From positions 264,466 through 328,465 of the forward strand of contig JADJRH010000002.1 in the NCBI GenBank assembly GCA_016712345.1: DNA of 64,000 nucleotides, read 5' to 3'. This stretch comes from Polyangiaceae bacterium. GTDB taxonomy: Bacteria; Myxococcota_A; Polyangia; Polyangiales; Polyangiaceae. The notes below the pieces were generated by a model that worked only from the letters and a program-made list of their open reading frames with translations, searched no databases and was not told where the DNA came from. Shown one piece after another: positions 1-64,000 of this stretch. Within the stretch, counting starts at the first letter, position 1, and every line of letters starts with the position of its first letter. Made by a program: the position numbers and the translations under genes.

Positions 1-4
1 CAGC

Positions 5-946
5 GTGCGACCGAGCATGCTTGTCAAAGGACAAAAGCAACGCGCTCAAATCCAGTTCGCGCAGCAGGTCGCTTCCGCCATTGTTCCAAGCCTTCTCGCT
101 CTGCCACCCAACGATCGAACCAACGAAGCGTCGCTTCTCACAGCCATTGTTCGCTCGTTCTCAAGCGACGTGATCGGCGCGCTCATCATGACGTTGCGCG
201 ACATGGATCAAGAAGGCACGTCGCGCGAGGTTCTCACCGGCGACATCGCAGCGATCCCGCTCGCCGAGGTGCTTCAAGTGCTTCAAATGCAGCGGCAAAC
301 AGGTGTCGTTCGCATCTCCAACCAAAAGAGCGCGCTCACAATCTACATGCGCCAAGGCCTGATCGATCTCGTTCAGTCGCGCGGCCTCCCTGAAGAGTTT
401 CGACTCGGGCGCTACTTCGTTGAAAAAGGCGTTGTCACCCGCGACGAGCTGGAAACCATCCTCAAAGACGCGGACCGTCGAAAGCTGCTCGGCGAAAACC
501 TTATTGAAGCGGGCAAAGCCCAATCCGACGACGTGCAAGAAGCGCTCGAACGTCAGTCGAGCGAGCTTGTGTACGACATGCTTCGATGGCCGTACGGACG
601 CTTTTCCTTTACACGTGAAGCATTCCGTCCCGAGGCAGAATCGGCGCGTTTGGGCCTCAGTGTGGCATCGCTTGTCCTTGAAGGATTTCGCCGCGTGGAT
701 GAATGGCGGCTCATGGAGAGCACCATCAACTTTGATCAGATCGTAATGGTCGATCAGGTTGCGCTTGAGTCGCTCGGCCCCGACAAACTCACTCGCACCG
801 AAACGTTGGTGCTTGATGCTGTAAACGGCGCGCGCACGGTGAGTCAGGTGATCAAAGAGTCCAACGTCGGCTCCTTTGACGCAATCAAGTCGCTCTACCA
901 ATTTCTACAATCGCGCGTCGTGCGCACCCGCCCCAACGGCGCTTAG
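5..946 (+). CDS. DUF4388 domain-containing protein (5' end possibly truncated by window edge)
   Basis: Central region GDIAAIPLAEVLQVLQMQRQTGVVRI...TIYMRQGLI matches the DUF4388 pattern (G.L...PL.ELLQ.L...G.L.I....G.I). A C-terminal GspE-N-like segment LLGENLIEAGKAQSDDVQEALERQ is also present. Confidence 0.55.
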   Translation: MRPSMLVKGQKQRAQIQFAQQVASAIVPSLLALPPNDRTNEASLLTAIVRSFSSDVIGALIMTLRDMDQEGTSREVLTGDIAAIPLAEVLQVLQMQRQTGVVRISNQKSALTIYMRQGLIDLVQSRGLPEEFRLGRYFVEKGVVTRDELETILKDADRRKLLGENLIEAGKAQSDDVQEALERQSSELVYDMLRWPYGRFSFTREAFRPEAESARLGLSVASLVLEGFRRVDEWRLMESTINFDQIVMVDQVALESLGPDKLTRTETLVLDAVNGARTVSQVIKESNVGSFDAIKSLYQFLQSRVVRTRPNGA

Positions 947-1023
947 TCACACGCGCCGGTGCCCACGCATCTCGTCGCGAGCCGTCTTGTGTGTACACAA
1001 ATTGGCTCACACAACGGAGCCTT

Positions 1024-1806
1024 CTACTCCGATCTGTCGGCTGCTTGAATCTGTTCCACGAGCGCCATCGCCAGGTGTTCTCCATCTTTTTTCTGTTGGA
1101 GACTCCGCCCGTTTTCGCGAGCCCACGCGAGCGCCAACACCAACGGAATTTGTTTGTCGTCCCGCCCAAGCTCTTCGTTGGAAAGCGCCGTCAGCACCTC
1201 GCCCATGTGTACAGGTCGCGCAATTGTCCTCACTTCCGTGGAGAGCTTTGTGCATTCTTCAGGTGCCGAAGTGACTGCATATTCGCGGCACGGTGAAGGC
1301 CTGTCCGCGTAGATCGAACAGGCGCCTTCCTCCAAAAACGGGCACGGGATCACCGCTTCAAAATAGCGCCGACTGATGTCTTCCCATTGCTCGTGCACGG
1401 TCGTCGCAGTTGAACGCAAAGCCCATTTTCCCGCCCTTGGTTCCGGCCGCCAAAGCCCCAATTCTTTGAGCTTGGCGAGCGCCGCTTCAAAGCGACTCTT
1501 CACAATCGAGCGCCGCCCTTCAGGCATCGCATCCACCACCTGAGCCAAATGGAGCGCCTCGATCGGTGCAACAGGCACCGTCTGGTAGCAGCACGCAGTG
1601 CACCCTTTTTTGCAGCTTACTTTGAGCGCCGCCCTTTCCGCGTTTGCAGCCGCGATCGAAGTGAACCCATCGGTGATTGCCCGCGCTGTCTCGATTATTT
1701 CCACCACGGCTGTGGGCCAAACGCGCGTCTTTACCGAGATCTCGTGCTCTTCGCCCAGCACGGCCAAATGCAACTTCAGATCGTCGTACCGCCTCTTCAC
1801 CGTCAT
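1024..1806 (-). CDS. YkgJ-family Fe-S/zinc-chelating cysteine-cluster protein (PF03692-like)
   Basis: CKKGCTACCYQ gives the CxxCxxCC motif. Additional Cys pairs follow downstream (CPFLEEGACSIY, SPCREY). Confidence 0.6.
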   Translation of the reverse strand: MTVKRRYDDLKLHLAVLGEEHEISVKTRVWPTAVVEIIETARAITDGFTSIAAANAERAALKVSCKKGCTACCYQTVPVAPIEALHLAQVVDAMPEGRRSIVKSRFEAALAKLKELGLWRPEPRAGKWALRSTATTVHEQWEDISRRYFEAVIPCPFLEEGACSIYADRPSPCREYAVTSAPEECTKLSTEVRTIARPVHMGEVLTALSNEELGRDDKQIPLVLALAWARENGRSLQQKKDGEHLAMALVEQIQAADRSE

Positions 1807-1975
1807 TGCGGGGCGATTCTAAACGTGCGCGTTTACAAAAAAACGATCCACCAAACCACCTTTGTTCCACGAAGCACCTTCGACCGAAGTGGTTGCCACG
1901 TGAGCCGCGCGCATCTAGGGTCGCCCTTCGCGGCCCGTGCGCGGGGCGGGTCGCAAAATATCTCGGTCGCACCCC

Positions 1976-2788
1976 ATGTCCGAATTCAACATTCTCATCG
2001 GCGCAGTTGCTTCGAGCCCGCGGGTTGTATCGTTTTGGGAGTCGATGGAAGGTCACTTCCGCGCGCAGAATTTCCCGATCGAATACGCACTTTTCTCAAA
2101 CTACGAACGCCAGGTTGAAGCGCTCCTCGCGGGTCATATCGACATTGCGTACAGCTCCCCGCTTGCGCATGCGCGCGTCAAAAAGCGCACCGACGGTCGA
2201 TCGATCACGCTGGCCGTGGCCGATATCGATCGCGGAGCATCGGCAAAAATCGTTGTTCGTCGCGACGCGGCCATTCGCAACTTTGCGGGGCTTCATGGCA
2301 AACGCCTCGCGGTCGGCGGGCGTGACTCCGCTCAAGCGCGCATTCTCCCGCTCTACTATTTGTCTCAAGCCGGCGTGGACCTCTCCAAAGTGGAGATCTT
2401 TCCGTTCGACATTCACATCGGCAAACACGGCGACACATCCGATGCCGAACTCAACGTTCTCGCCGCCGTGCTCGACGGACGTGTACACGCCGGCGCCGTT
2501 GGCACCCGTGTTTGGAACGCCGAAAACGCCGCCAGTCGCATCGATCTCGCGAAAGTTGAAGTGTTGTGGACAACCCCCACATTTGACCTTCGCGTGTTCG
2601 ACGCGCTCCCTCAACTTGCCGCGCAAAAAGCCGACGGCTTCCAACGCATCCTTCTCGCGATGAGCTTCAAAAATCCAGCCCATCGCCGAGTGCTTGATCC
2701 CGAGGGCATTCGCCAATGGGTAGTGCCGCGTGAAGAAGCGTACGCCGCCATGATGGCCGCGCTCGATATGGGCCTCGCGAGCGGATAG
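1976..2788 (+). CDS. PhnD/SsuA/transferrin-family substrate-binding protein (phosphonate ABC-type SBP-like)
   Basis: Overall PhnD-like layout: NILIGAV...GHIDIAYSSPLAHARV...GKRLAV...ARILPLYYL. No obvious signal peptide. Start chosen at MSEFNIL. Confidence 0.5.
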   Translation: MSEFNILIGAVASSPRVVSFWESMEGHFRAQNFPIEYALFSNYERQVEALLAGHIDIAYSSPLAHARVKKRTDGRSITLAVADIDRGASAKIVVRRDAAIRNFAGLHGKRLAVGGRDSAQARILPLYYLSQAGVDLSKVEIFPFDIHIGKHGDTSDAELNVLAAVLDGRVHAGAVGTRVWNAENAASRIDLAKVEVLWTTPTFDLRVFDALPQLAAQKADGFQRILLAMSFKNPAHRRVLDPEGIRQWVVPREEAYAAMMAALDMGLASG

Positions 2789-2850
2789 CCGATCCAACAT
2801 CGCTCATTCATGTCGCTCGCTCGGCGTGATGCGGTGCTAAACTCGCCGCA

Positions 2851-3966
2851 GTGTCGCTCAAGATTGACCAAGACCACGGCCGTTTCCGCCAAATTGTTCG
2901 CGGAAAAATCCGACAAAACCTGAGAAAGTACATTTCCCAGGGAGAACTCATCGGCAGGCAGGGCAAAGACCTTGTGTCGATTCCCATCCCCCAAATCGAC
3001 ATTCCGCGGTTTCGCTTCGGCGACAAACAGCGCGGAGGCGTAGGGCAGGGTGACGGCAAAGCCGGTGATCCCATCAGTGGAAGCCCCGGCGATGATAAAC
3101 AGCCCGGCAAAGGCCAGGCCGGCAGCGACGCAGGCGATCACGCCATTGAAGTTGACGTGACCCTTGATGAATTGGCAGCCATCTTGGGTGAAGAACTGGA
3201 GTTGCCCGACATTCAAGACAAGGGCAAAAACACCGTATCCAGCGCACACGACAAGTATTCAGGTATTCGGCGCGTTGGGCCCGAATCACTGCGCCACTTC
3301 AAACGCACCTACCGTGAAGCGCTCAAACGCATGATATCGAGCGGCACTTTTCGCCCTGAAAAGCCGGTTGTCGTTCCCATTCGTGAAGACAAGCGTTATC
3401 GCTCGTGGAAAACCATCAATGAGCCTGTCACCAACGCCGTCATCATCTACATGATGGACGTGTCGGGCTCCATGGGTGACGAACAGAAAGAAATTGTCCG
3501 CATTGAAAGCTTCTGGATCGATGCGTGGCTCACCAAACAATACAAAGGCCTCGAATCGCGTTTTATCATTCACGACGCCGTTGCCCGCGAAGTCGACCGT
3601 GACACCTTCTTTCACACCCGCGAGTCGGGCGGCACAATGATCTCGTCTGCATACAAGCTGTGCTCACAGATTATCAATGACAACTACCCGCCCGAGGAGT
3701 GGAACATCTACCCATTCCACTTTTCAGACGGTGACAACTGGTCCATGGATGACACGCTTTCGTGTGTGGAAATCCTCAAAAAACAGCTCTTACCCCGCGT
3801 GAACATGTTTGCCTACGGTCAGGTAGAAAGTCCTTACGGCTCCGGCCAGTTTATAAAAGACCTGCGCGAACACTTCGCCAAAGACGATCGCGTTGTCACC
3901 AGCGAAATTCGCGACAAAGACGCCATTGTAAACAGCATCAAAGACTTTTTGGGCAAGGGTAAGTAG
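2851..3966 (+). CDS. yeaH: YeaH/YhbH family protein (DUF444, UPF0229)
   Basis: Family hallmarks [20 protein letters not shown] and FSDGDNW, with Gly-rich N-terminal linker. Immediately upstream of spoVR, as in the prkA-yeaH-spoVR module. Confidence 0.8.
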
Positions 3967-3970
3967 AGCC

Positions 3971-5530
3971 ATGAGCAAATTTGCTCTCCACACCACACTG
4001 CCCCGTTACCTCCGTGAACAACAGGAGCGCATTGAGGGCATCGCCCGCGGTTACGGGCTCGATTTTTTCCCCGTTATTTTTGAAATATTAACGTACGACC
4101 AAATGAACGAAATCGCGGCGTACAGCGGTTTCCCCACGCGTTATCCCCATTGGCGCTTTGGCATGGAGTATGAACAACTCTCCAAGAGTTATGAATACGG
4201 CCTGTCAAAAATCTACGAAATGGTGATCAACAACAATCCTTCGTACGCTTACCTGCTTGAAGGAAACTCACTCACCGATCAAAAACTCGTTATGGCCCAC
4301 GTGTTTGGCCATGTTGACTTTTTCAAAAACAACTTCTGTTTCAGGCCCACAGACCTCGACCGCCAAGGCCCCGTTGTCGACCCTGTGCGCCGCCCCGGCG
4401 ACTACGATCCTGACAGAAAATGGATCGATAAAATGGCCAATCACGGTGCCCGCATCTCGCGCCATATTGAGCGACACGGCATCTCCAAAATAGAACAGTT
4501 TATCGATCAATGCCTCTCGCTTGAAAACCTGATTGACCCTTGGGCCCCATTTTCAGGCCGTGCCGCCCCCAAAATCGACGACGAAGATGAAGCTCCGGCG
4601 AGCGTGCCCAAACTCCAAGCCAAGGAGTATATGGACTCGTACATCAACCCTGAGAGCTACATTGAGGCGCAGAAAAAAAAGCAGCTTGAAAAACAAAAGG
4701 CTGAAAAGAAACACCCTGAAAAGCCCGAGCGCGACATCCTCAAGTTCGTTTTAGACAATGCCCCACTTGAACGTTGGGAGCGCGATGTTCTCGAAGTGCT
4801 CCGCGACGAGGCATATTACTTTTTGCCGCAGCGCCAAACCAAAATCATGAATGAAGGTTGGGCGGCTTATTGGCACTCTAAAATGATGACTGAAAAGGTA
4901 CTCGATGCTTCAGAAATCATCGATTACGCCGAAAACAACGCGGGTGTCATGGCCACCGCCCCCGGCAAACTCAACCCTTACAAACTCGGAGTAGAACTCT
5001 TCCGCTACATCGAAGAGCGCTGGGACAAAGGCCAGTTTGGTAAAGATTGGGAAGAGTGCAGTGACATGGACGCGCGCCGTCACTGGGATTTGCGCCTTGG
5101 AATGGGCCGCAAAAAGATCTTTGAAGTGCGTGCCCTCTACAATGACGTAACCTTCCTTGATGAATTTCTCACCCCAGAATTCATCATCGACATGAAAATG
5201 TACACATTCGGTTTTTCCAACCGCAATGACAGGTATGAAATCGAAAGTCGTGAGTTCAAAGAGGTCAAAGAAAAACTCCTTTTCCAACTCACAAACTTCG
5301 GTGATCCCGTCATCAGCGTCATTGATGCAAACTGGGGCAACCGGGGAGAACTGTTGCTTGAACATCGCTTCGCCGGGATGGAACTGCGGGCCGACTACGC
5401 TCGTGAAACGCTCGCCGCGCTCGTTCGATGTTGGAAGCGCCCCGTCCTTGTTTCCACACGGGTAGAAGGCAAACCTGTCCTCCTTCGATACGACGGCAAA
5501 GACCACTCTTCCATCCCCTTCAAGGTGTAG
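3971..5530 (+). CDS. spoVR: SpoVR family protein
   Basis: N-terminus TTLPRYL...[39 protein letters not shown], length about 519 aa. Sits 5 bp downstream of yeaH. Confidence 0.85.
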
Positions 5531-6792
5531 TGGTGAACCCCACTGCATCAAGCCTCCGGCTATACAGTCAGGTTGCCTTTCGCGTTCAAAAAGGTCGCCT
5601 TGTCGCAGCGGCGTTGATCACGTTTGGACTGAGCGCATGCGGGCCGAGTGAGCCTATCCAAACACCACCTCAACCCACCGCTTCAACTCCTCTCACCACT
5701 CCAACGCCTCTCAACTCCAACGCTCCACCGTCGCCGAGCGCCTCGGCCCAACAAGCCCCCACCGCGCAACCTACCACCTTACCACCGGACCCCATTCCAC
5801 CTCCAACCCCGCCGCCCCGCCTGGCCCGAGGTGTGGATACTCCGTCGGACAAAGCCCTTGTGGAAGGCGACACAGCGTTTGCCATATCCGACTTTACACT
5901 CGCAGAAAAGGCTTACAAAAAAGCCCAAACGTTGGCCCCCAAAGACCCGGCTCCCGTGGTTGGACTATGCCGGGCCCGGCTTGGAAAAGCTTCCATCCCC
6001 GAGGGGTTTGCCACCGCTGCCGGCGACAAAACAGTCACGGCGGCAATTGCCGATCTCAAAAAGGCCGTTGCGCTCGACAGTCAGTTTGCGCCCGCCCATA
6101 TTGAGTTGGCACGTACCCTTTTAATCTCCGGCGACGCCGCCGCGGCTCTCACCGCCGCAAAAAAAGGGGTAGAACTCTCTCCCAACGACCCAGAAGCCCA
6201 CTCGGCACTTGGCATTGCACACCTCGCCTCCGGTGACATCGAAAACGCCGTCACCTCGCTAAAACGCAGCGCAGAATTGGGCCCGGGTGACTTTGGCCGC
6301 CAACTCAACTACGCAACGGCCCTGTTGTCCGCCAAAAAAGTGACTGAAGCACAAGCTGTATTCCAAAAAGCCTCCCGCATTGACCCCAACGACGCGCGCG
6401 CCCACAACGGCATTGGAACAGCGCTCCTTATGTTGGGTGACCCGGTCAAGGCCACACCCCACCTTGAAAAAGCCACTCAACTCGACCCAGAAGGTGCAAG
6501 TTATTATCAAAACCTTGGGTACGCATGGTCCCTCCGCGGCGACGCTCCCAAAGCCATTCTTCTCTACCAAAAAGCTGTCGAAAAAAATCCAAAACTCGTC
6601 AGCGCCTGGATCAACCTCGGCAACACCTTTGCCACCCAGGGTAAGTTTACCGACGCTTGCAACGCGTACACCAAAGTGTACACACTTGACCCTGAAGACC
6701 CACGCCTCAAAGACGCCCTAATCGAAGTCGACGAAATCGCCAAAAAGCAGGGTCTCACAGGCGCCGGCTGCAAAGTCGGCAGCAAAAAGTAA
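5530..6792 (+). CDS. TPR-repeat lipoprotein with Pro-rich linker
   Basis: GTG start directly after spoVR stop. Signal plus lipobox LITFGLSAC. Pro/Thr-rich spacer followed by multiple 34-aa TPR-like units (AHIELARTLL..., AHSALGIAH..., AHNGIGTAL..., WINLGNTF...). Confidence 0.6.
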   Translation: MVNPTASSLRLYSQVAFRVQKGRLVAAALITFGLSACGPSEPIQTPPQPTASTPLTTPTPLNSNAPPSPSASAQQAPTAQPTTLPPDPIPPPTPPPRLARGVDTPSDKALVEGDTAFAISDFTLAEKAYKKAQTLAPKDPAPVVGLCRARLGKASIPEGFATAAGDKTVTAAIADLKKAVALDSQFAPAHIELARTLLISGDAAAALTAAKKGVELSPNDPEAHSALGIAHLASGDIENAVTSLKRSAELGPGDFGRQLNYATALLSAKKVTEAQAVFQKASRIDPNDARAHNGIGTALLMLGDPVKATPHLEKATQLDPEGASYYQNLGYAWSLRGDAPKAILLYQKAVEKNPKLVSAWINLGNTFATQGKFTDACNAYTKVYTLDPEDPRLKDALIEVDEIAKKQGLTGAGCKVGSKK

Positions 6793-6824
6793 GGTTATAC
6801 TCCAAGGGTCAATGCCCCCCACCG

Positions 6825-6844
6825 CCGCAGGTGGTCACCTGCGG
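6825..6844. terminator. GC-rich palindrome CCGCAGGTG-gt-CACCTGCGG between convergent genes (possible bidirectional terminator hairpin)
   Basis: Perfect 9-bp inverted arms. Located 33 nt after the TPR-gene stop and about 90 nt after the ATPase stop. No U-tract. Confidence 0.3.
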
Positions 6845-6932
6845 CTGGCCCCCCACGTGCCGTGCTCGGCCTTCGGCCTCCGCGCGTCAACGGGGGGCCC
6901 CCCCGCGAGCGGGAGTGCGAGCGGGTAGGGTG

Positions 6933-8744
6933 TCAGCGGGAGGTAGACACCGCCCGGCGAAGTTTTTTCGACGATTGGGGTTTGGTAGATTTGTCAGGCT
7001 TGGTAGGTTTATCGAATTTGTCAGATTGGGAAGGTTTCGCAGATTTGGTGAGCGTGTCAGGTTTGCTGGACTTATCGGGCTTGTCAGATTGGGGAGGTTT
7101 GTCAGGTTTGGTGGATTTGTCAGACTTGTCAGATTGGGAAGCTTGTCGCGACTTGAGAATTGCCGTTCGTTCGTGAATGGCTTTCGCCACGTCCCCCGCC
7201 ACTTCAAGCACTTCTTTGGGGGCTAGGGGCCGTTCACCGGTCACCATTTGCAGCGCGGCAACCAATGGTTCAAGCGGGGCCGCAAGCGGTGAAGTGCGGA
7301 GAATTGCGAGCGCCTCCGTCGGGTAACCCGCGGCGGCGATATCCACAAAGAGAGTCTGCCAACCTTCTTTTCGAACGCTCGGCAGGTGTCGGGCGATCCT
7401 TGCGCTCTCTTCCCGGAGCACCTCGCGCCCCTCTTCCCAGGTTCGCGCCCCCTCACTCAACTGCTTCAACCAATACTCTCGCACATGCGGATTTCCCTGC
7501 CGCTGAAACAGCGACCTGACGACCCACTTGTGGTCATCCCGCTTATCTTCGCTGAGTGCTCCAGCTTCGTTGGCGACGGTTTTCAAAACGCTGCCCAACT
7601 CGGCGGAGTCATAAAAGTGGACCATAAAATCCACCACAGCTCGAACGCGCGTTTCTTCCCCTCCCGAGCGCCGGAGCAAATGGTAGATATTGTACATTCG
7701 CTCCGAAAGTTCATACACTTTCTTCCGGCCGTCGCCCGATGCGGTAACCACACCCCGTTGAACCAATCTACCCAAGAGCGCACTCGTTTCACTGGCATTC
7801 ATCCGGGCTTGATCCGCCACTTCACGCGCTGTGGAAGGATGCCAAAGGTCGGCCAGTGTAACGTACACTTTGCGTTCTTTACCGGGCAAACTTTCAAGAT
7901 TGCTCTTGAAGTACGTGGTATGATCGTCCACCAACTTTACCAGGTGATCCATTAAATCGCGGAGAGACATTCCCGACGCGAACGATGCTAAAATGGCCAA
8001 TAACCGCGGATTTCCCCCAGTCAAAATATGCAGAGGTCGCATCCGCTCCACCGGCACGTTGGCTTGGGCAACTTGTTCCCACACCCGGTGGGCGCTGGGT
8101 AGATCGAGCGGATCTAACCGGTAGGTTCGAAACTGATCAAAAAACGCTTTTTCAGAATTTTCAATGGCATCAAAGCTGGCTGTGGCGGTGGCAACAAGCA
8201 ATATGCGGCGCTCAGTTTGAAGGGTTTTTCGCAACCGCCAAGCATCGGCATCTGAGATCTGTTCTCCAAGCAACATGTGGAGGTTTTCCACAACCACCAC
8301 AATGCGCTTGCCCCTCTGATGAGCGATTTCTAAGAGCGTTCCCAAAGCTCGATCATACAGACGTTGCTCGTCCAGTTCTTTCTTGAGGGTAGTATAAGTA
8401 TCCAGCAGGTGACGTTCGCCCAAACTGTCGGCCCAATAGCGCAACCCTTCCAACCAAAGTTCACCGGCGGTCAGCACTTCATACGCTTCTTCTGCGTACA
8501 CAAGGGGTAGCCACTCGTTTGAAAAGCGGGGGTTTGTTCTTACCTCGTGAGCCGCCCGTCTTACCAACGTTGTTTTGCCCATACCGCGCGCGCCAAAGAT
8601 CAAAAGATGTTGGCACGATGGGCCTGTATTTTCGGCAATGTGGTCAAGAACAAAGGTAAGGTCTTCTTCCCTCGCCACGAACGATCTGACAAGTTGGTCA
8701 GCGCTTAAAAACGGCGGGTTGTTTTTCATCAGCGGGGGGTTCAT
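6933..8744 (-). CDS. AAA+ ATPase (PF01637-like) with winged-helix domain and disordered KPDKS-repeat tail
   Basis: Walker A GARGMGKTT, Walker B VVVVENLH, wHTH-like KVYVTLADLW...LLGRLVQRGVV. C-terminal KSDKSTKPDKPPQSDKPDKSSKPD repeats are encoded by DNA tandem repeats. The ATG overlaps the stop of the upstream ATPase (ATGA overlap at 8741-8744). Confidence 0.6.
   Translation of the reverse strand: MNPPLMKNNPPFLSADQLVRSFVAREEDLTFVLDHIAENTGPSCQHLLIFGARGMGKTTLVRRAAHEVRTNPRFSNEWLPLVYAEEAYEVLTAGELWLEGLRYWADSLGERHLLDTYTTLKKELDEQRLYDRALGTLLEIAHQRGKRIVVVVENLHMLLGEQISDADAWRLRKTLQTERRILLVATATASFDAIENSEKAFFDQFRTYRLDPLDLPSAHRVWEQVAQANVPVERMRPLHILTGGNPRLLAILASFASGMSLRDLMDHLVKLVDDHTTYFKSNLESLPGKERKVYVTLADLWHPSTAREVADQARMNASETSALLGRLVQRGVVTASGDGRKKVYELSERMYNIYHLLRRSGGEETRVRAVVDFMVHFYDSAELGSVLKTVANEAGALSEDKRDDHKWVVRSLFQRQGNPHVREYWLKQLSEGARTWEEGREVLREESARIARHLPSVRKEGWQTLFVDIAAAGYPTEALAILRTSPLAAPLEPLVAALQMVTGERPLAPKEVLEVAGDVAKAIHERTAILKSRQASQSDKSDKSTKPDKPPQSDKPDKSSKPDTLTKSAKPSQSDKFDKPTKPDKSTKPQSSKKLRRAVSTSR
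6955..7160. repeat. imperfect approximately 18-24-bp tandem repeats inside the ATPase coding region (encode KPDKS/TKPDK low-complexity tail)
   Basis: ttggtagatttgtcaggc / ttggtaggtttatcgaatttgtcagattggga / ...ttgtcagattgggga... units are visible by eye. Confidence 0.6.
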
Positions 8745-9967
8745 TGTGGTGCGCCCGACTTCGCGAGAAAGTTGAATTTGGCCCGCCACCACCTGCGCAC
8801 CAGGTTAGAAACAAAAACATACCCATCCCCTTTTGACTCCAAATACCCGTCGTGCTCAAAAATCCCCAAGATTTCGCGCAGAAAATCTTCAGGTCTACCT
8901 TCCATCTCTCCACTCGACATAAAGTCGCGAGTGATCGCGAAGGCTCGCTCATTTGTCAGAGCACCGTTGATCGACGCATCCGTCAACAAGTCAATGGCGA
9001 GCGATTGTTTTTCAGGTCCGAGCACCAATTTGAGACGCTCTTCCAAGTGACTCAACTGCACATGACCCCGGCTGCTCAACATGCGTTCTTCAAAAACCCG
9101 TTGCACGTCACCGTCCGTCAATTCCCCTGATTTTCGGCGCCGAGCATCTTGGGAGGCAAAGTCGAAAAAGAGTTGAACATGGTGGGGCACCGCGCTCCCA
9201 AGCAGGGCAACCATTGTTTGCGCCGTCCCCCTTTGTAGAATCAGCTTTTGCGACTCGGCGATTCGAGTAAGAAATTCAACAGCGGTGTCTGTGTCCCAAG
9301 GGCTTAACTCAAACGGTGTAAACGTGTTCATTGTGGCTGACAGCGCGGCCTGTCGGAGCACCGGTTCAAGCCCAATGGAGCCTGCTGCAACAAATCGAAT
9401 TTGACCTTTTCGGCGGCTTGTTTCTTCGCGCAAAAAAGAAAGAAAAAGGTCGGCATCGCGGCGCCGTTCAGGAGTGATTTTATAATCGTCTCCCTTCAAC
9501 ATCCGGTTTACCAAAATGGGTAGTTCATCCAAAAAGATGATCACCGGCCCATCATGGGTTGAAAGGCTTTGAAGCAGCTGCACGCCCTTTGCTCGCCAAC
9601 CGGAGGCAACCGCGTCGCGCAGTTTGATGGACAGTTCAAACGCCTGCAGCGAGTCAACGTTTTCTAAAAATCCTTGAAAAACCGACTGCGCTCTTTTCCA
9701 CAGGGGTTGATGTTGACGCGTCGCGAGAGCCAGCTCGGCAATTGCATCGGCGGCGTTTTGTGACCCTTCCAAGTCGACAAACAAGCAGAGGTAGTTATCG
9801 GGAAGGCGACGCGCGAGTTCACGCATCAAGCTTGTTTTGCCGACGCGGCGCGGCGCCACCAACAACACGTGGTTCCCCGCATCAAGTTGCAGTCGCAATT
9901 CACGCAGCTCGTGGTCGCGGCCCCAAAAGTCGTCTCCGCTGACCCAATTTCCAACCTGACTTTTCAT
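8741..9967 (-). CDS. AAA+ ATPase, archaeal-type ATPase family (PF01637-like)
   Basis: FWGRDHELREL...LLVAPRRVGKTSLMRELARRL (Walker A) and IIFLDELP (Walker B). Start chosen at MKSQVG; a longer N-terminal extension is possible. Confidence 0.6.
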   Translation of the reverse strand: MKSQVGNWVSGDDFWGRDHELRELRLQLDAGNHVLLVAPRRVGKTSLMRELARRLPDNYLCLFVDLEGSQNAADAIAELALATRQHQPLWKRAQSVFQGFLENVDSLQAFELSIKLRDAVASGWRAKGVQLLQSLSTHDGPVIIFLDELPILVNRMLKGDDYKITPERRRDADLFLSFLREETSRRKGQIRFVAAGSIGLEPVLRQAALSATMNTFTPFELSPWDTDTAVEFLTRIAESQKLILQRGTAQTMVALLGSAVPHHVQLFFDFASQDARRRKSGELTDGDVQRVFEERMLSSRGHVQLSHLEERLKLVLGPEKQSLAIDLLTDASINGALTNERAFAITRDFMSSGEMEGRPEDFLREILGIFEHDGYLESKGDGYVFVSNLVRRWWRAKFNFLAKSGAPQ

Positions 9968-10130
9968 CAAGCGCTCCACAGCCGGTGAGTTGGCACCGGC
10001 GTTCACAACAGTTTTGTTGGCAACAGTTTTGTTGGCAACAAAACTGTTGTCAAGCAAAAGCGTTGAGAGGCGCGTGTGCGCGTCTGCGAAGTAGCATCAC
10101 GGAAGCACGGTGCACTTCGCAGCCGTCGCG

Positions 10131-10770
10131 CTAATTCAACCACTCTTTGGGCGGGCGCTTTTTACCCGTGGGTGTCTTTTCTAGAATGTCGTCGGCCGAA
10201 AACGGTTTGTAATCGCTTTTGGAACGAGCGTACGGGCCGGGGCCGCCCGGCGGTCGTCGAACGCTCTTTTTCCGCCATTTCCACCAATGGGCGATGCCAT
10301 TTTTGCCAAACAGCTTCCATGCCTCGGCGCCGTCAAACCCTGGAATGGGTAGGAGGTTAATCGCCATCAGGTAGAGATTTGTCATGAGAAAGGCACTCAC
10401 CAACTCCATGACAAAGTGCGGAGTTTTGGGAGGCAATAAAAACGAGAGTGGCAGTGCGATCAGTAGCAACACCATTTGCCCAAACACGCCACCCCATGAA
10501 ATCAAGGCGCGCTGAATGGGGGAGGGGCTTCCGTACCATTGGCAGTCACCGCCGATGCCGTGCACATTGACACTCACAACTTCGAGTTTGAAAGCCCGAA
10601 TGATCAGCGCGTGTCCCAGCTCATGAACCAGAATCAGTATGAGAAAGGCCAACCAGGCCGCGGGCGAAAATCGAAACCCGCCGAAGAAAAACGCTCCGAG
10701 CGGTGCACTCCAATGGATGCGAATGGGGGCGCGACCAAAACTGCCAATGCGGAAAAAGCCGTTTTCCATG
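10131..10770 (-). CDS. M50-family (site-2 protease-like) membrane metalloprotease
   Basis: HELGHALI zinc motif in a hydrophobic context, several TM segments, and LLPIPGFDGAEAW (LDG-like motif). Confidence 0.6.
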
Positions 10771-10812
10771 TTGGTGCTTGTGGCGTAGCACGAATTGGAG
10801 GCAGAGGCGCGT

Positions 10813-11739: not shown

Positions 11740-11856
11740 AAGGCTGTTTTCCAACGTCCGGTGCACGAATTCGCCGACCGATCGCTCGTCTGAATGAGAC
11801 GCGCTACCATCACAACTACGTAAGCTGTGGGGCTTCGACTTATGGGAAAACGTCCG

Positions 11857-12954: not shown

Positions 12955-13127
12955 TCAGACCCGCGTGTGTCCGACCGAGATCGTCGTTTCACGTTGAGCG
13001 ACGTGTGCGGAACGCGTCTGGTTTCGCAGAAACTTTTTTCGTTTCACGTGCGCGCTCCCGGGCTGCGAACAATCATCCACGTTGGTGCTTGATTGTGCGG
13101 CCCGCGCGCGCTCAGAATGCGCCCGCC

Positions 13128-24831: not shown

Positions 24832-24932
24832 GGGACAATTTCGCACCCGTTTGGCCTCCCGCTGCAAGACGAATTACGCGATCGTCTGCTCTTTCGTGTT
24901 TTCAGGTTAACTCTTGGGTAAAGTGTTCCGCC

Positions 24933-37336: not shown

Positions 37337-37346
37337 TGGCCCCACT

Positions 37347-43092: not shown

Positions 43093-43350
43093 CCCGCCCT
43101 GCGCACAAGGCCTACACGAAGCGACGAGAACAATCTGGAGAAGGCGACGGCTGTTGAGCGCGGTGTACACATGCGCCCGAAAAAAAAGACGTGCACCTTA
43201 TGGCGTATTGACAACCCGTGTCTTTTCGGATGATTGTGAAAGTGCCCCGATCGCTGTTCAGATCGAAACCCGGCGTGGCTCAAGCGTCACGGCACATCAT
43301 GACCCGGCGCGGGCGTGTCGGCCGGGCGCAGCGGAAAAACACTGGCATCT

Positions 43351-57277: not shown

Positions 57278-58624
57278 ATGCGCTTGTCCACCGTTCTCAC
57301 TCAGTTTCTCGTGTGCATCCCCATCATCGGTGCCGCGGGGTGTTCCTTAGCGGAGCCGATCTTAATTCCAATGTGTCAAGAAACGCCGGAGGCGCGGAGC
57401 GAGCAGAAACAACCTTCCAAGCCGCTGCCCGCGCACCCTGACTACGAGCAGCTTCGCGCGCTCAGAAACTATTATTCTGTTCAATCGGTTGAAGAGTACG
57501 CTCACCACTTTTCGGTTTGGTTCAGCTGTGTTGAGTCCAGTACGGCGCACTACACGGTTTCGCCCTCGGGTGAAGTTCGCAAAGTCGGCGGCGCGTGGGG
57601 AGGTCTCGCCACGACAGATAGAAAGGTTGACAGTGTTCCGCCGGAGCAGGCTCAAAACGCCGCTCTTGTTCGAACCGAGCACGATCGAGCGTATCTCCAC
57701 GAGTCAAAACCGATTGTTGTGTACATGGGTTCTTACCGCCGGGTTTGGGTAAATGAAGTGGTGCCGTGGCACGGTCCTGGAAGTCCATACAAACGGATGA
57801 TGAACCACATGGAAGTAGCATTTCGAGCCAATGCCGATCTTACCTCGTTCGACGGGTATGAAACGTTCTCCGGCGGCACAACAAAGCTGTGTTGGGAAGA
57901 CCTCTCTGTCCGAGACTGTTCCAACCCCCATTGGGTAGATTTCACTCCGTCCAAGTCACCCACTTCACTTCTTGTCGCGCTTGCCTCCAATAATGCGGCC
58001 GCGCCGGTTTTGTCTGAAGAACGGCAGAAGTTCAACGAAGTGGTGTTGGCCGCCGCTCGCAAAAAAGTGGCAGGTGAGCCGGGCACCCCGCTCGCCGATA
58101 TTCTAACGCATCAAGAAGCGACCTTACTCCCCACCGGCTACAATCCCGAATTTGTCATTGGGTTTAGAATGCACGCCCACCCTAAAGAAGGTGCAAACCA
58201 AAAAAACGTGGAGTCACAGTTTTCAAAAACCCTTCTTTTGAGCGACATTTTTAAGGGTTCAATCAAAACAACATTGGAAGGTCAAGTGGCCGGTCAACCC
58301 GTCAGCGCCGACGTGACCATCTCGGTTGACCCGAAACCGCCCCAACCTCAAGGCGAGTTTGAAACATCGCTCCAGTTTGTGTACACAATTCGTGCCGTGG
58401 GCAGTTCGCGCTCGGCCGAGTTAAAGGTAACCGCCAAAGTGATTGTCGACGGTGATCGTGTGGCTCTCCTGTGGAGAAATCTACCCAAAGAGGTTGAGCA
58501 GGCTCCACATTTGCCGCCGCTGACTCAAACGTTTGCCGGTACCGGAATGTATAAAGAAGTGGAAAGCCACTTTTTTCTGACAAGCGACACCATGCCCAAA
58601 CCGTGGTATCCGCCGAGCAGGTAG
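57278..58624 (+). CDS. hypothetical lipoprotein
   Basis: Lipobox IIGAAGCS. No recognisable domain. Confidence 0.35.
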   Translation: MRLSTVLTQFLVCIPIIGAAGCSLAEPILIPMCQETPEARSEQKQPSKPLPAHPDYEQLRALRNYYSVQSVEEYAHHFSVWFSCVESSTAHYTVSPSGEVRKVGGAWGGLATTDRKVDSVPPEQAQNAALVRTEHDRAYLHESKPIVVYMGSYRRVWVNEVVPWHGPGSPYKRMMNHMEVAFRANADLTSFDGYETFSGGTTKLCWEDLSVRDCSNPHWVDFTPSKSPTSLLVALASNNAAAPVLSEERQKFNEVVLAAARKKVAGEPGTPLADILTHQEATLLPTGYNPEFVIGFRMHAHPKEGANQKNVESQFSKTLLLSDIFKGSIKTTLEGQVAGQPVSADVTISVDPKPPQPQGEFETSLQFVYTIRAVGSSRSAELKVTAKVIVDGDRVALLWRNLPKEVEQAPHLPPLTQTFAGTGMYKEVESHFFLTSDTMPKPWYPPSR

Positions 58625-60190: not shown

Positions 60191-62008
60191 TTATCGCAGT
60201 TTATGATCCCATGAACCTACCCGGTATGACGCCAATGCGCGTTTGGCCGCACCCGTCAGCGGGGCAAGGGCAGGGGTAAGATCCGTGAGCCAGGCTGCCA
60301 AATCAACCTTCTCGGTCACTCCACAGCGCGACCGCAACTCTGAAAGACGCAGCCCCATCTCGCGTCGCGTCAGCTCTCCCGACAGAAGCTCTTCCACAAC
60401 CACCGCGGGACTCCACGGTCGACCCCGCCGATACCGCGCCGATGGGTCGAGCTTCGCGTTTGCCAGCGCCGATTTCCAAGCTGATTTGTCGAGCCGCTCG
60501 TCGGAGTCGACCATGGGGCCAAACAGCGTTTCAAGCGCGTTTGCGGCGTCGTCGGCCAAATCTTCGTCACCCAATTGAGCCGTCAGATAAGACCAGGCAC
60601 CCGGATGTCCAAATCGAGCCAGGGTAGACAAGGTGGCGGCCGACTTTGGAACCCGCGCAAGCAAGTTGGCAAGAAGTGTGTTGTCCTCACTGTTTCCCGC
60701 ACGAACAAGCACTTCCCCGGCGAGCTGCGAAAGCCTGGATGTTTCAGGTGCGCCGCTTTTAAGCGCGCGGTACGGATCTTCCAAACCCCACGCGAGCAGC
60801 GTGGACGCCGCCGTACAGGCCACCGTTGCATCCGGGAAGGTGAGCCATTTGCGTACGACGGGGAAAAGCGGTTCGGCAGCCGTTACATCAAGCCGGCGGG
60901 CCGCCCATAGAGCTGCGCGCAGAACGGTAAGATCGGGATCAAACAAAAAGGACCGGAGCTGGTCAATGGGTAGAGCCTGTTTTCTACCCAGGAAGTAGAC
61001 CGCCACGGCCCTGCAAGGTGAGTGGGGATGTTGAAGCAGTCGCCGCGAGAATTCGTCGAGTTCTGGGTGGGGAGAACAGGCCAGGGCCTCAAAAGCCTTG
61101 TGCGCGGCGAGGGCATCCGTCGGTGCCAACCGTAACAGTCCGTATTCTACCGCGTCAAGAATATCCGAACCCGAAAAACTCCCCAACGCGAATACCGCGG
61201 CCCAGGTGTTCCAAGGGTTGGGCGACGAAAGTGAACGGCCCCAGGCGCCCACAAGAATGGGGACAATCGCACCGCCGATGCTGACCATTGCGTCCACGTG
61301 GGCGAGGATGCGCGCTTCAACCTCCGAACGAGCGGCAAAGGGCCTTTCTGCCCGGTGCCTTCCCAACATGGAAAGGCGGTCGAGCGCGAGCACTACAATC
61401 TCTTCATGGAGCAAATGCTCATCGATGGCGCCTCCTTTGCCATCGATCGCGGTTACCACCGGAGGCGGCCCTTTGGGTAGATCGGGATCGGGTTGACCTC
61501 GCCCCAAGGCAGCCGGAGCCGGTTTAAAATCGTCAAATGGGGACGGCAGATCGTCATTTTCGGGCGCAGCGGTTACAGTTTCGAGTGGTGTTGTTGTTGC
61601 AGCAGAAGAGACGCTCGCGGGTAGAAAAACGTCTCGGACGGGCGACTTCAAAACAACCCGTTCAGGTTCGGCCACAAGCAGCGTTGGGATTGTGGGCGTT
61701 GGGAGCGTTCCAACCGAGGGGTGGAGAAGCGCTTGGCACCGTAGGCTTTCACCGTAGGCCCGCGCCACCGTTTGCAGCGTTTCAAGGTCGAGCGCATGGT
61801 TACCTGCCAACACCGTGGCGCGCTGTGCGAGGGTGGAAACCGCGCGCGTTACAGCATCCAGATTGGGTGGGCCTCCCAAGCCTTCCACTGTGTCGAGCAA
61901 AGCGCCCAGCGGGGTTTGGATGGATGTTTTCCAGGTGCCATCTGGCATGGAAGCAATGCGGTCAAAGGCGGCTCGCAGGTGTTTTGCGAGGTCTTTCGCG
62001 GAGGTCAT
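60191..62008 (-). CDS. large hypothetical protein (possible T6SS cargo)
   Basis: Start chosen at MTSAKDL, giving a 4-nt overlap with the upstream gene. Helical, HEAT-like C-terminal half. No motif recognised. Confidence 0.35.
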   Translation of the reverse strand: MTSAKDLAKHLRAAFDRIASMPDGTWKTSIQTPLGALLDTVEGLGGPPNLDAVTRAVSTLAQRATVLAGNHALDLETLQTVARAYGESLRCQALLHPSVGTLPTPTIPTLLVAEPERVVLKSPVRDVFLPASVSSAATTTPLETVTAAPENDDLPSPFDDFKPAPAALGRGQPDPDLPKGPPPVVTAIDGKGGAIDEHLLHEEIVVLALDRLSMLGRHRAERPFAARSEVEARILAHVDAMVSIGGAIVPILVGAWGRSLSSPNPWNTWAAVFALGSFSGSDILDAVEYGLLRLAPTDALAAHKAFEALACSPHPELDEFSRRLLQHPHSPCRAVAVYFLGRKQALPIDQLRSFLFDPDLTVLRAALWAARRLDVTAAEPLFPVVRKWLTFPDATVACTAASTLLAWGLEDPYRALKSGAPETSRLSQLAGEVLVRAGNSEDNTLLANLLARVPKSAATLSTLARFGHPGAWSYLTAQLGDEDLADDAANALETLFGPMVDSDERLDKSAWKSALANAKLDPSARYRRGRPWSPAVVVEELLSGELTRREMGLRLSELRSRCGVTEKVDLAAWLTDLTPALAPLTGAAKRALASYRVGSWDHKLR

Positions 62009-63057
62009 GAGGCACCCAACCTTACCCATGCTCCGCCGCGGAGGCCGTCGGGAGAAATCGCCCATGAAAAGTGGGCTTTGGTGTCGGCCGGAGTCACCGG
62101 CAGATGATGCCGCAACGTGGAAACGCCCCACACGACATTGGCAACACCCGCCGCGGCGCCCATTCTACCCACGTAATCTTCCGCACCTGAAAAGGTGCAT
62201 GCCGGGCCAAACATTTCAGCGTTTCGGGCCGAAGCAAAGTTCCACTCCTGACTCCGAAAATCATCCACCATACTCTGTCCAAATACGGCGCCCACCGCCT
62301 CGCCCTGGGCTGTCTCTCGAAATACCTTTCCCAGCGCCGTGCCGTCGGGCGGCTCGTCGTTGTCGTCGGCCGAGACGCTCTTCGACACAGCGCTTTTCAC
62401 GATGGAGGCTATCACCTGACTGCCGGCGCGGCGCGCTCCGGGTGGAGTCATCAGCGCCAACGCGGCGGCACCTTCGGAAAAGGGGAGAGGGTCGCGCGCC
62501 CAAGGACTTGGGGGGTGAGTGAGATGGTAGGCGAGAACATTCAGGTCGACAAACGAGTCAACAGCGACCACGCAGAGAATCGAACTCGCGCTTTTTACAG
62601 CAAGTGACTCTGCATCGCGGAGGGTAGAAAAAACACCCGCCTCCCCATGCGTTTTTGAAGCGAGTGAAGCGCCGCAGTCCGACGCCAGGGCGCGAGCGAG
62701 ATCATCGGCCGACCGCGCGCTGAAAAGGTCCGACGGAGCGCGTGTACACACCGCGAGCGAAAGTGTGAGATCGGTAACATCGGGTTTTTCACCTTCGCGC
62801 GGCGTGAGAAATCCAAGTTGTCGAAGTGGGTCAAGCGCGTCTTTTACCGCGCGTTTTGCCATGAGAAAAAGCCGCTCCGAAAGAGGAACCTTGGCTCCAA
62901 TGTGGCGGCAATATCGAACATCTACCCGTTTGTCTTGGGCGTCGACAAAAGGGGAAGGTGACGGTGCCGGTAGGCCCGCGGCGCTGAAGAACACGTGCTG
63001 CTGCGGAGTGAAACCCACCGGCGAAACAAGCCCGGTGCCCACGATCGCAAGTGTCAT
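62005..63057 (-). CDS. hypothetical protein with beta-ketoacyl-synthase-like N-terminus
   Basis: MTLAIVGTGLVSPVGFT resembles the KAS/thiolase-fold N-terminus, but no Cys-His-His catalytic constellation is evident. 4-nt overlaps with both neighbours. Confidence 0.3.
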   Translation of the reverse strand: MTLAIVGTGLVSPVGFTPQQHVFFSAAGLPAPSPSPFVDAQDKRVDVRYCRHIGAKVPLSERLFLMAKRAVKDALDPLRQLGFLTPREGEKPDVTDLTLSLAVCTRAPSDLFSARSADDLARALASDCGASLASKTHGEAGVFSTLRDAESLAVKSASSILCVVAVDSFVDLNVLAYHLTHPPSPWARDPLPFSEGAAALALMTPPGARRAGSQVIASIVKSAVSKSVSADDNDEPPDGTALGKVFRETAQGEAVGAVFGQSMVDDFRSQEWNFASARNAEMFGPACTFSGAEDYVGRMGAAAGVANVVWGVSTLRHHLPVTPADTKAHFSWAISPDGLRGGAWVRLGAS

Positions 63058-64000
63058 GTGTGTCCCGTTTCACCGCTCTGTTTGGAAGAGTTGTTGATTT
63101 TGATGTTCGCGGCATCAATGAGTACACCGCTGTCGGACGCTGTGACGGTTGTTCCTCCCACGTTAAAGCTCACCTTGGCGCCTTTCATGGTGAGGGAACC
63201 GGCCACAGTGAGAGAAATCGAGGCGGCCGACTTGATGGTATGTTTCGCTTTGGAGACGCTTTTCAGCGACCCTGCGATTTGGGTATTGATAGGCCCTTTC
63301 ACATCACGCGACATAGGGCCTTTGGTTTCGATCTTGAGACTGCCCAACGTTTCGGTAGAAGCGCCGAGCACGGATACTCCACCCCGCGCGGCTTTGGTAG
63401 AATAACTACCCGCGATGAGAAACGTGGAAGCTCCCACGGTGTGCCAGCCGACATTGCCCGGCGAAACGGCCGCGTACGTGCTTCCGATCATCTCCATCAT
63501 GGCCCCTTTTACACCCGTGTTGCGGTGCCCCGGACCGGGCCCCGCCGCCGCGGATGAATCGCTCGCCCCGGATCCGCCTCCACCGCCGGCGCTGTCGCCG
63601 GGAGGGGCCGCACCCGCTTCCCATGGCGCGGGTTGGGCAATGCCTTGGACAGTGGAGAGAATGGCATCACCCCCCGGGATCATACCCGCTCCAACACCGA
63701 GAGCGCTCATTCCCGCACCTGACAGAGCACCGCGCCAACCGCCTGTTCTGTAACCTTCCACAGCCGCCATCCCAGCGCCGCCAACCGCCGCGGCCACGGC
63801 TCCCCATGTTCCCGCTGCGCCCACACCTGAAAGTACCGCCGCTTTTCCGAGATTGGTAAGCCCCGTGACCGGATCGCCAACTTTTTCAAGTACGGCGGCT
63901 CCTACCATGACCGATTCACTACCCACTAGAATAATGGTTTTCCCTTTGACATAGATCTTTTGCGATCCACCCACCGTTGCCGACTGCGATCCCACAGCGG
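63054..64000 (-). CDS. C-terminal part of a VgrG-like / phage-spike beta-helix protein (N-terminus beyond window)
   Basis: Periodic Gly/hydrophobic beta-helix-like repeats (SLKIETKGPMSRDVKGPINTQIAGSLKSVSKAKHTIKSAASISLTVAGSLTMKGAKVSFNVGG) and a Gly/Ala-rich segment. The ORF runs off the 3' window edge. Confidence 0.35.
   Translation of the reverse strand, partial: AVGSQSATVGGSQKIYVKGKTIILVGSESVMVGAAVLEKVGDPVTGLTNLGKAAVLSGVGAAGTWGAVAAAVGGAGMAAVEGYRTGGWRGALSGAGMSALGVGAGMIPGGDAILSTVQGIAQPAPWEAGAAPPGDSAGGGGGSGASDSSAAAGPGPGHRNTGVKGAMMEMIGSTYAAVSPGNVGWHTVGASTFLIAGSYSTKAARGGVSVLGASTETLGSLKIETKGPMSRDVKGPINTQIAGSLKSVSKAKHTIKSAASISLTVAGSLTMKGAKVSFNVGGTTVTASDSGVLIDAANIKINNSSKQSGETGHT

Follow-up and report, generated by a model that had tools for sequence, protein, structure and literature searches.

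Short words that recur in a bacterial genome far above expectation are rare, and the cases that are understood, among them the DNA uptake sequence (DUS), the uptake signal sequence (USS) and Chi, have each led to machinery that reads a sequence and plays a central part in DNA exchange or repair. Among the palindromic words, the best known, HIP1 (highly iterated palindrome 1; GCGATCGC), is unexplained after three decades. HIP1 is present at 300–2700 copies per Mb with observed-to-expected ratios (O/E) of 55–228, its deviations are biased to the outer positions, and it has been linked to GATC and CGATCG methyltransferases (PMC4390886). An over-representation of 15–300-fold and a conservation of sites were also reported, together with a proposed role in the nucleoid (PMC5861425). 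Transformation is more efficient with methylated HIP1 (10.1101/2024.09.10.611283), and a role as an uptake sequence has been suggested for HIP1 (10.64898/2026.06.24.733823). Here, we analyzed an 8-bp palindrome, GTGTACAC, that is strongly over-represented in a 64-kb stretch (hereafter, the window) of contig JADJRH010000002.1 from a metagenome-assembled genome (MAG) of the family Polyangiaceae. We know of no HIP1-type or DUS/USS-type word described in myxobacteria, and a literature search on GTGTACAC, TGTGTACACA, and TGTACA methylation returned nothing bacterial of relevance. The sample consisted of these 64 kb of one MAG, and every word count refers to the window unless another locus is named.

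In several respects GTGTACAC is similar to HIP1. Both are 8-bp palindromes with a tens-fold excess and hundreds of copies per Mb (for GTGTACAC, in the window only), and both are dispersed over coding and non-coding DNA in all frames, without conserved flanks and often as part of a 10-mer. One-nucleotide variants are concentrated at the outer positions, as described for HIP1 (PMC4390886). The nested architecture is also shared, with G-TGTACA-C containing GTAC compared to G-CGATCG-C containing GATC, as is the lineage-specific replacement by other words known for HIP1 and its alternates. However, GTGTACAC has another sequence, is AT-richer than its own genome and occurs in another phylum, the Myxococcota. 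Its density of 250 per Mb is at the low end of the HIP1 range, positions 2 and 7 inside the 6-mer are loose and not only positions 1 and 8, and no cognate methyltransferase is known for it. Whereas HIP1 is phylum-wide, enrichment of GTGTACAC was not common to relatives at 85–88% protein identity. The HIP1 word itself was present in six copies in the window. GTGTACAC is thus distinct from HIP1 and can at best be called an analogue of it, a new variant among the hyper-abundant iterated words.

The uptake words of the Neisseriaceae (DUS) and Pasteurellaceae (USS) are short words at very high density on both strands. They share with GTGTACAC a graded excess of mismatched forms (PMC1939737), the way in which they are written into genes by codon choice and some amino-acid changes (PMC2817400), and the existence of "dialects". 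Unlike GTGTACAC, they are non-palindromic, about three times denser and tied to a demonstrated biased uptake. For DUS the receptor is known, whereas the palindrome described here co-occurs with two further words.

Abundance of GTGTACAC in the window

An exact search returned 16 copies of GTGTACAC, equivalent to 250 per Mb or one copy per 4.1 kb. Markov models of order 0, 1, 2, and 3 predicted 0.90, 0.36, 0.95, and 0.73 copies, respectively, resulting in O/E values of 17–44 (Poisson P ~1e-16), and 100 dinucleotide-preserving shuffles contained 0.36 copies on average, with 2 as the largest count. The word was enriched in each of the three thirds of the window, and the 10-mer TGTGTACACA was found 6 times vs. 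0.03 expected. A preliminary description of this stretch had reported 14 copies, approximately 15-fold over about one expected. All 14 positions were real to within 20 nt, with the copies at 11530 and 62742 missed, and the 15-fold estimate is right for base composition and conservative against the other null models. The same description held that TA-containing words are avoided, in line with a TA dinucleotide odds ratio of 0.44 in the window, and that copies lie in any coding frame as well as in intergenic DNA. Indeed, 13 copies were located in maximal open reading frames (ORFs; frames 7/3/3) and 3 were clearly intergenic.

In a codon-aware null model, the amino-acid sequence and codon usage were fixed and synonymous codons were shuffled either within genes or across genes (300 shuffles each). 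These shuffles contained a mean of 4.3–4.5 and a maximum of 8 copies, of which about 3 were the unshuffled intergenic ones; within ORFs, the 13 observed copies compared to about 1.5 expected. With this difference, and with the word present in all frames, a by-product of codon or amino-acid usage was rejected. Markov models of orders 5–6, including the maximal-order model, predicted 12–14 copies (O/E 1.2–1.3). The high-order O/E carries no information in this case, since in 64 kb the sub-words of 6 and 7 nt are almost wholly motif copies, so that the null model absorbs the signal; on one strand, 16 of the 21 occurrences of GTGTACA belonged to GTGTACAC copies. The maximal-order comparison that had been suggested as a check gave only this small excess, but with a model trained on the motif's own sub-words, and the enrichment held against the order 0–3 and codon-aware null models.

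Structure of the site

The flanks of GTGTACAC were random except for T at −1 or A at +1 (19/32), and the pairwise identity of the 12-nt flanks, 0.27–0.28, was at random level. Many dispersed copies containing a palindrome are also a feature of repetitive extragenic palindromes (REP) and miniature inverted-repeat transposable elements (MITE). Those are 30–150-bp intergenic units with conserved flanks, whereas only 8–12 bp were conserved here and most sites were intragenic. With random flanks and 13 of 16 copies in ORFs, a REP or MITE element was rejected.

The excess was graded, with O/E values of 22, 2.4, 1.0, 1.0, and 1.0 for forms with 0, 1, 2, 3, and 4 mismatches, respectively. The enriched one-mismatch forms were GAGTACAC (7.9-fold), GGGTACAC (4.6-fold), ATGTACAC (4.5-fold), and GCGTACAC (2.9-fold). 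Positions 2/7 and 1/8 tolerated mismatches, whereas the central GTAC was hardly ever altered. Five of the six types of position 3–4 variant, in which this center is broken, were at or below expectation (3 in total vs. 8.1 expected); the sixth, GTGGACAC, was enriched (6 vs. 1.9), and all six types together amounted to 9 vs. 10 expected.

The half-site GTACACA occurred 46 times vs. 4.5 expected. The degenerate family GNGTACAC/GTGTACNC comprised 44 sites at a density of one per 1.45 kb, and at least one perfect GTACAC half was present at 64 sites. In the 48 sites with a single perfect half, the weak side kept G at −2 (28/48), T at −3 (24/48), and A at −4 (20/48). Since imperfect sites retain T−3 and G−2 on their weak side, the site is truly dyad-symmetric. 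Two independent half-sites that merely overlap had been considered, as the excess of palindromes over this expectation looked weak (16 vs. 10), and were rejected on the same retention of T−3 and G−2. The unit is a dyad-symmetric 10–12-mer with the consensus aTGnGTACnCAt and with GTGTACAC as its perfect core. The 8-mer noticed at the outset is only part of it; the degenerate 10–12-mer, its lineage specificity and the further words described below had gone unnoticed.

Positions and context of the copies

The perfect copies are listed by their coordinates in the window. Gene starts are those of the longest ORFs, and the distinction between coding and intergenic is uncertain at 21657 and 31344.

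Copy 1, 991–998: tGTGTACACa, intergenic, between the convergent 3′ ends of a DUF4388 gene (end 946) and a CxxCxxCC gene (end 1024)
Copy 2, 2481–2488: phosphonate-binding-like gene 1937–2788 (+), CGT GTA CAC (R V H)
Copy 3, 6676–6683: TPR gene 5428–6792 (+), GTG TAC ACA (V Y T)
Copy 4, 11530–11537: ORF 10813–11883 (−), AGT GTA CAC
Copy 5, 15331–15338: HEAT-repeat gene 12861–15668 (+), GGT GTA CAC
Copy 6, 21657–21664: PPIase gene 21153–21758 (−), first ~34 codons of the longest ORF
Copy 7, 24985–24992: alpha/beta-hydrolase gene 24933–25937 (+), GGT GTA CAC (G V H)
Copy 8, 25891–25898: same alpha/beta-hydrolase gene 24933–25937 (+), non-conserved C-terminal tail, 39 nt before the stop, AGT GTA CAC
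Copy 9, 27045–27052: ureidoglycolate-lyase gene 26812–27318 (−), GTG TGT ACA CAA
Copy 10, 31344–31351: longest amidohydrolase ORF 30048–31427 (−), within its first 28 codons, 60 nt beyond the urate-oxidase stop; coding or intergenic ambiguous
Copy 11, 34049–34056: intergenic, between the divergent YwiC-like gene 33123–33992 (−) and NnrS gene 34242–35453 (+)
Copy 12, 35557–35564: overlaps the last codons of ORF 35552–37345 (−), convergent on the NnrS gene end at 35453
Copy 13, 39571–39578: GH5 cellulase gene 38674–40161 (+), GTG TAC ACC
Copy 14, 43163–43170: intergenic, between the co-directional FMO-like gene (end 43092) and hybrid histidine-kinase gene (start 43315)
Copy 15, 58379–58386: ORF 57278–58624 (+), GTG TAC ACA
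Copy 16, 62742–62749: ketoacyl-synthase-like ORF 62005–63057 (−)

Copy 6 lies outside the part of the gene conserved with the related locus L082 and may belong to a 5′ leader instead of coding sequence. Imperfect copies accompany two of the perfect ones: GCGTACAC at 6664, 12 nt upstream of copy 3, and GTGTACGC at 39556, 7 nt upstream of copy 13. The latter pair (39556/39571) scores as a spurious hairpin (39556–39578, within the gene) because both copies are self-complementary. This intragenic hairpin was the sole one, and no inverted terminator-type pair of GTGTACAC was present in the window.

Among the 44 degenerate sites, 39 were located in ORFs (frames 18/11/10) and 5 were intergenic, with a non-coding fraction of 6–9% in the window. 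For the palindrome itself strand balance is uninformative; the asymmetric variants were distributed as 12 sense and 14 antisense, without strand bias. A polar chromosome word, such as Chi or the FtsK-orienting polar sequences (KOPS), was rejected since GTGTACAC is self-complementary and its asymmetric variants lack strand bias. The spacing of GTGTACAC was indistinguishable from Poisson, with 906 nt between the closest pair of perfect copies. No regular spacing was found in the window, which at 64 kb is too short for the 10–90-kb periods of HIP1. Nor was there a link of the copies to promoter-like or terminator-like sites in the window, and no Rfam family matched it. Near gene boundaries (no more than ~110 nt from a start or stop, or intergenic) we found 9 of the 16 perfect copies vs. 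~23% expected (P ~0.004), with a small n and several starts uncertain. This leaning would fit an accumulation where constraint is weakest.

The gene content of the window is ordinarily chromosomal and includes DUF444/SpoVR, two phosphofructokinases, a urate-to-ureidoglycolate pathway, Ser/Thr and histidine kinases, and TPR and HEAT proteins. The purine-degradation cluster (27662–33024 and 26812–27318) encodes a urate oxidase fused to cytochrome c, an amidohydrolase, an allantoicase fused to an OHCU decarboxylase, a ureidoglycolate lyase, and a rubredoxin. The two phosphofructokinase paralogues adjoin at 22333–24867.

Origin of the copies

Relatives were sought in ~15 billion proteins, in GTDB representatives and in JGI metagenomes; the latter two sets contained only relatives with identities of at most 88% and 84%, respectively. 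The SpoVR protein of the window was 100% identical to MBK8255190.1, and the next-best SpoVR in the protein database after this exact self-match was 86% identical. The window has a GC content of 57% compared to 66–69% in the nearest relatives, at 85–88% SpoVR identity, and the lineage has apparently lost ~10 points of GC. No enrichment of GTGTACAC was detected in 114 related loci (80 genome and 34 metagenome loci, ~1.7 Mb), which contained 0–1 copy per 20 kb, as expected. Loci L009 and L001 were syntenic with window positions 1–17 kb and loci L081–L083 with 18.8–29 kb.

GTGTACAC was missing from the relatives, which are distant and without enrichment altogether, at each of the six coding sites that could be aligned. 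Since the relatives carry other bases at each of these sites, the copies are derived in this lineage. Two arose by synonymous changes (24985, 27045) and four by non-synonymous ones (2481, 6676, 11530, 15331), three of which were Ala to Val. At 2481, the relatives have CGC GCG CAC (L001) or CGC GCC CAG (L009), so that the derived copy replaced Ala by Val; at 11530 and 15331, L001 has AGC GCG CAC and GGG GCG CAT, respectively, again with Ala in place of Val. At 6676, GTG CAC GCG or GTC CAC GCC (V H A) in relatives corresponds to the non-synonymous derived copy 3. At 24985, three relatives have GGC GTG CAC, GGC GTC CAC and AGC GTG CAC, from which the copy was obtained by synonymous changes only. 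At 27045, L083 has GTG TGC ACG CGA, which is synonymous within the 8-mer.

Rare codons were used for the synonymous gains (GGC GTG CAC to GGT GTA CAC; GTG TGC ACG to GTG TGT ACA). In the window as a whole, Val-His was written GTA CAC in 12 of 44 cases vs. 3.6 expected, GTA being the rarest Val codon. Transitions alone account for four of the six derived copies (2481, 6676, 11530, and 27045), by GCGCGCAC to GTGTACAC twice, GTGCACGC to GTGTACAC, and GTGTGCACG to GTGTGTACA. The other two also required transversions, by GGGCGCAT to GTGTACAC at 15331 and from the relative with GTC at 24985.

Some other differences between the window and its relatives were noted along the alignments. The CxxCxxCC-domain gene at 1024–1806 (−) and its flanks are missing from the syntenic L009, where the neighbors abut (window 946–1937 vs. 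L009 7945–7964). The difference is an insertion or deletion specific to one lineage, with copy 1 (991) at one of its borders. Ordinary repeats also gave high k-mer scores in loci of relatives, namely a 28-bp tandem array in L009 (12950–13240) and REP-like hairpin elements in L035 (16480–16820) and L067 (7239–7290, 10049–10160, and 19333–19365). These repeats are unlike words with random flanks and were used as contrast cases.

Other hyper-abundant words

Two further motifs, separate from the palindrome, were hyper-abundant in the window. The non-palindromic TCTACCCA (extended form GATCTACCCATT) was present in 27 copies vs. 3.8 expected under the Markov-3 model or 1.3–1.5 under codon shuffles, and its core TCTACC/GGTAGA occurred 92 times vs. 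8.5 expected. Example positions are 3707, 27057, 39000, 43895, 45771, 51501, 54595, and 60967/60983. All 27 copies were located in ORFs, in all three frames, with 20 sense and 7 antisense; their orientation tracked the direction of genes and not that of replication, and their spacing was clustered rather than Poisson (coefficient of variation 1.5). From the sense bias, a signal linked to RNA or transcription may be suspected. Rare codons were again involved, with Leu-Pro written as CTA CCC in 25 cases vs. 1.5 expected and Gly-Arg as GGT AGA in 13 vs. 1.4, and relatives had synonymous alternatives at TCTACCCA sites. At 27057, a TCTACCCA copy of synonymous origin (TTC TTG CCC in L083, TTT CTA CCC in the window) lies 4 nt from copy 9 of the palindrome (GTGTACACaccaTGGGTAGA, window 27045–27064). 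An inverted TCTACCCA pair, TGGGTAGAgcctgtttTCTACCCA, was seen at 60967–60990 in the HEAT-repeat ORF 60191–62131 (−) and was the only such pair.

The third word, AACCTGAC(A), was found in 13 copies vs. 2.1 under the Markov-3 model, on both strands, with random flanks and with 2 copies intergenic (examples at 7056, 7101, 16197, 30435, 33053, and 58832). A single motif TGnGTAnA uniting GTGTACAC and TCTACCCA was rejected, as only TGnGTACA and TGGGTAGA were enriched and no other combination was.

Another word, GGACAAAC, was hyper-abundant in loci L023, L027, and L034, which represent a second Polyangiaceae clade that is low in GC as well (55–58%). In L027, 14 copies occurred in 15.5 kb (1–15509; 1.06 expected), 7 per strand and with random flanks (examples at 861, 1113, 2644, 5587, 5915, 7368, and 14688), and L023 and L034 contained 4 copies in 5.6 kb and 3 in 4.65 kb, respectively. 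Compared to Polyangium, these copies arose by synonymous and non-synonymous changes (e.g., CGC CTC TCC to CGT TTG TCC). A separate word in this clade suggests that hyper-abundant words form lineage-specific "dialects" in the Polyangiaceae.

Proposed explanation and alternatives

The results support a force acting on the DNA word itself, and the dyad-symmetric profile of the site is of a type expected for a dimeric or Type-II-like protein. The DNA-level selection postulated in the preliminary description was upheld in its core, by the null models of order 0–3 and the codon-aware one, by the presence of the word in all frames and by its creation at codons where relatives differ; the mechanisms listed there could not be separated. 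On balance, we consider it somewhat probable that GTGTACAC is a protein-read word of this lineage that has accumulated by selection or biased conversion. The consensus aTGnGTACnCAt would be read by a sequence-specific, probably dimeric, DNA-binding or DNA-modifying protein, and copies would accumulate chromosome-wide since the word itself is favored. The driving force would be selection for a high copy number or, alternatively, a biased conversion of near-matches into matches, the latter through biased uptake and recombination or through biased mismatch repair. In a more concrete version, which we prefer by analogy with HIP1 but hold to be less likely than not, an orphan Type-II-like methyltransferase would mark the GTAC-centered palindrome (candidate motifs GTGTACAC/GNGTACNC), and uptake, recombination or repair would treat the marked word as a tag of "self" DNA; its copies would be spread by gene conversion and tolerated mainly where protein constraint is weak. 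It is also conceivable, if unlikely, that each low-GC Polyangiaceae lineage has its own self words, as tags for uptake and/or recombination and possibly dependent on methylation, as has been suggested for HIP1; this MAG would have the set TGTGTACACA, TCTACCCA, and AACCTGACA, and the clade of L027, L023, and L034 would have GGACAAAC.

Several observations weigh against a protein-read word accumulated in this way. No methyltransferase, Vsr, restriction-modification or competence gene was identified in the window with Pfam and NCBIfam, and the chromosome-wide spread of the word is extrapolated from 64 kb of one MAG. Three hyper-abundant words in one genome exceed the HIP1 or DUS precedents, and the loose positions 2/7 inside the palindrome differ from HIP1, in which the inner 6-mer is conserved and serves as the methyltransferase site. 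The amino acid was altered at four of the six derived sites, whereas uptake words lie mostly where the cost is low (PMC2817400). The collections searched contained no close relative of the MAG, the nearest having 85–88% SpoVR identity, and a site-conservation test of the kind applied to HIP1 needs one.

The more specific mechanisms can be weighed against these same data. In a strict DNA-uptake signal, a receptor of the competence-pilus/ComEA type would prefer the word and molecular drive, through uptake and homologous recombination, would spread its copies as for DUS and USS. The high density on either strand and both inside and outside coding DNA, the lineage "dialects" and the 9 of 16 perfect copies near boundaries (P ~0.004, small n) are consistent with this, as are the graded mismatch profile described for uptake sequences (PMC1939737), the codon and amino-acid changes reported for USS/DUS (PMC2817400), and the proposal that HIP1 itself is an uptake sequence (10.64898/2026.06.24.733823). 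We nevertheless regard it as unlikely: one perfect word per 4 kb compares to ~1.2 kb for USS/DUS (PMC2817400), the window has three candidate words instead of the one of known systems, and no literature was found on sequence-specific uptake in myxobacteria. Inverted pairs at terminators were absent as well; in Neisseria, DUS frequently form inverted-repeat pairs that serve as terminators. Slightly less probable still is biased repair alone, in which the word has no function and a methyltransferase with Vsr-like, very-short-patch (VSP) repair converts near-cognates, as in Elhai's model for HIP1 (PMC4390886) and as with CCWGG in Escherichia coli. A palindrome with a GTAC core is typical of Type II sites, and the VSP skew of CCWGG over CTWGG in E. 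coli offers a parallel for the rise of a palindromic target. Four of the six derived copies arose by transitions alone, and central-position neighbors were few for five of the six types (3 vs. 8.1), yet not for all six with the enriched GTGGACAC included (9 vs. 10). Known VSP effects in E. coli are below ~2-fold, compared to the 20–40-fold excess found here, i.e., about ten times that size. Moreover, the position-2 transversion variants GAGTACAC (7.9-fold) and GGGTACAC (4.6-fold) were enriched and not depleted. For HIP1, site conservation favored selection (PMC5861425). Under biased repair, a strong depletion of the transition intermediates GTGTGCAC/GTGCACAC and of GTATACAC would be expected; GTGTGCAC and GTGCACAC were observed once vs. 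1.5–2.8 expected, counts that are too small to judge.

About as improbable as biased repair is that the copies are sites of an abundant nucleoid-associated or chromosome-organizing protein, comparable to SlmA, Noc, or MatP but far denser. A dyad-symmetric 10–12-mer with half-site tolerance is typical of dimeric binders, the sites are dispersed regardless of genes, and a nucleoid-structure role was proposed for HIP1 (PMC5861425). On the other hand, spacing was Poisson without regularity, no candidate protein is known, and at the density of the window a genome of myxobacterial size would contain a few thousand sites, whereas the known nucleoid proteins with site-specific binding have tens to hundreds in a genome. 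Operators of a transcription-factor regulon or of the global regulator suggested in the preliminary description are very improbable. The site is palindromic, as that suggestion had it, and resembles operators of the TGTG..CACA type; three copies are intergenic, and those at 24985, 31344, 21657, and 34049 lie near gene starts. The promoter-bound version was disfavored, with 13 of 16 perfect and 39 of 44 degenerate sites in ORFs, no promoter association, and the copies at 991 and 35557 between convergent gene ends, where they are unsuited to operators. In addition, the copies at 24985 and 27045 lie in conserved coding sequence, and one site per 1.5–4 kb is far too dense for a regulon. An artefact, whether from a chance local excess, from codon or amino-acid usage, or from long-read errors at a methylated motif (GTGCGCAC miscalled as GTGTACAC), has an equally small chance of being correct. 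The MAG presumably comes, judging from its accession series, from a long-read activated-sludge project; three GTA Val codons replace a conserved Ala GCG that is restored when TA is read as CG, and the maximal-order Markov O/E was only 1.2. However, that null model was trained on the motif's own sub-words, codon-aware shuffles gave ~1.5 copies vs. the 13 observed, and all thirds of the window were enriched. A CG-to-TA conversion or basecalling artefact on GTGCGCAC or GCGCGCAC was rejected, as both precursors had their expected frequency in the window and hence were not being converted, relatives contain ~2 GTGCGCAC per 64 kb, too few to source 16 copies, and two copies as well as neighboring TCTACCCA words arose by protein-preserving synonymous changes, which errors would not respect.

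Implications

A protein-read word in the Myxococcota would be an independent case in another phylum and thus a second system for the ideas developed around HIP1, namely methyl-directed repair, an uptake signal, a recombination hotspot and nucleoid structure. GTGTACAC combines another sequence with the nested-palindrome architecture of HIP1 and is of such recent origin that it is missing from relatives. As it is derived in a single lineage, a comparison of the gene content of this MAG with that of its word-free relatives, JAWKRE01 and JAXLYM01 among them, should reveal the methyltransferase, receptor or repair enzyme. Words of this type are also sharp lineage markers for binning and for spotting horizontally acquired DNA. 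If the words are read as self, this would be, to our knowledge and leaving the HIP1 proposal aside, the first sequence-specific uptake or self-recognition "dialect" outside the Neisseriaceae and Pasteurellaceae, and its phylum would be one noted for kin recognition and social behavior.

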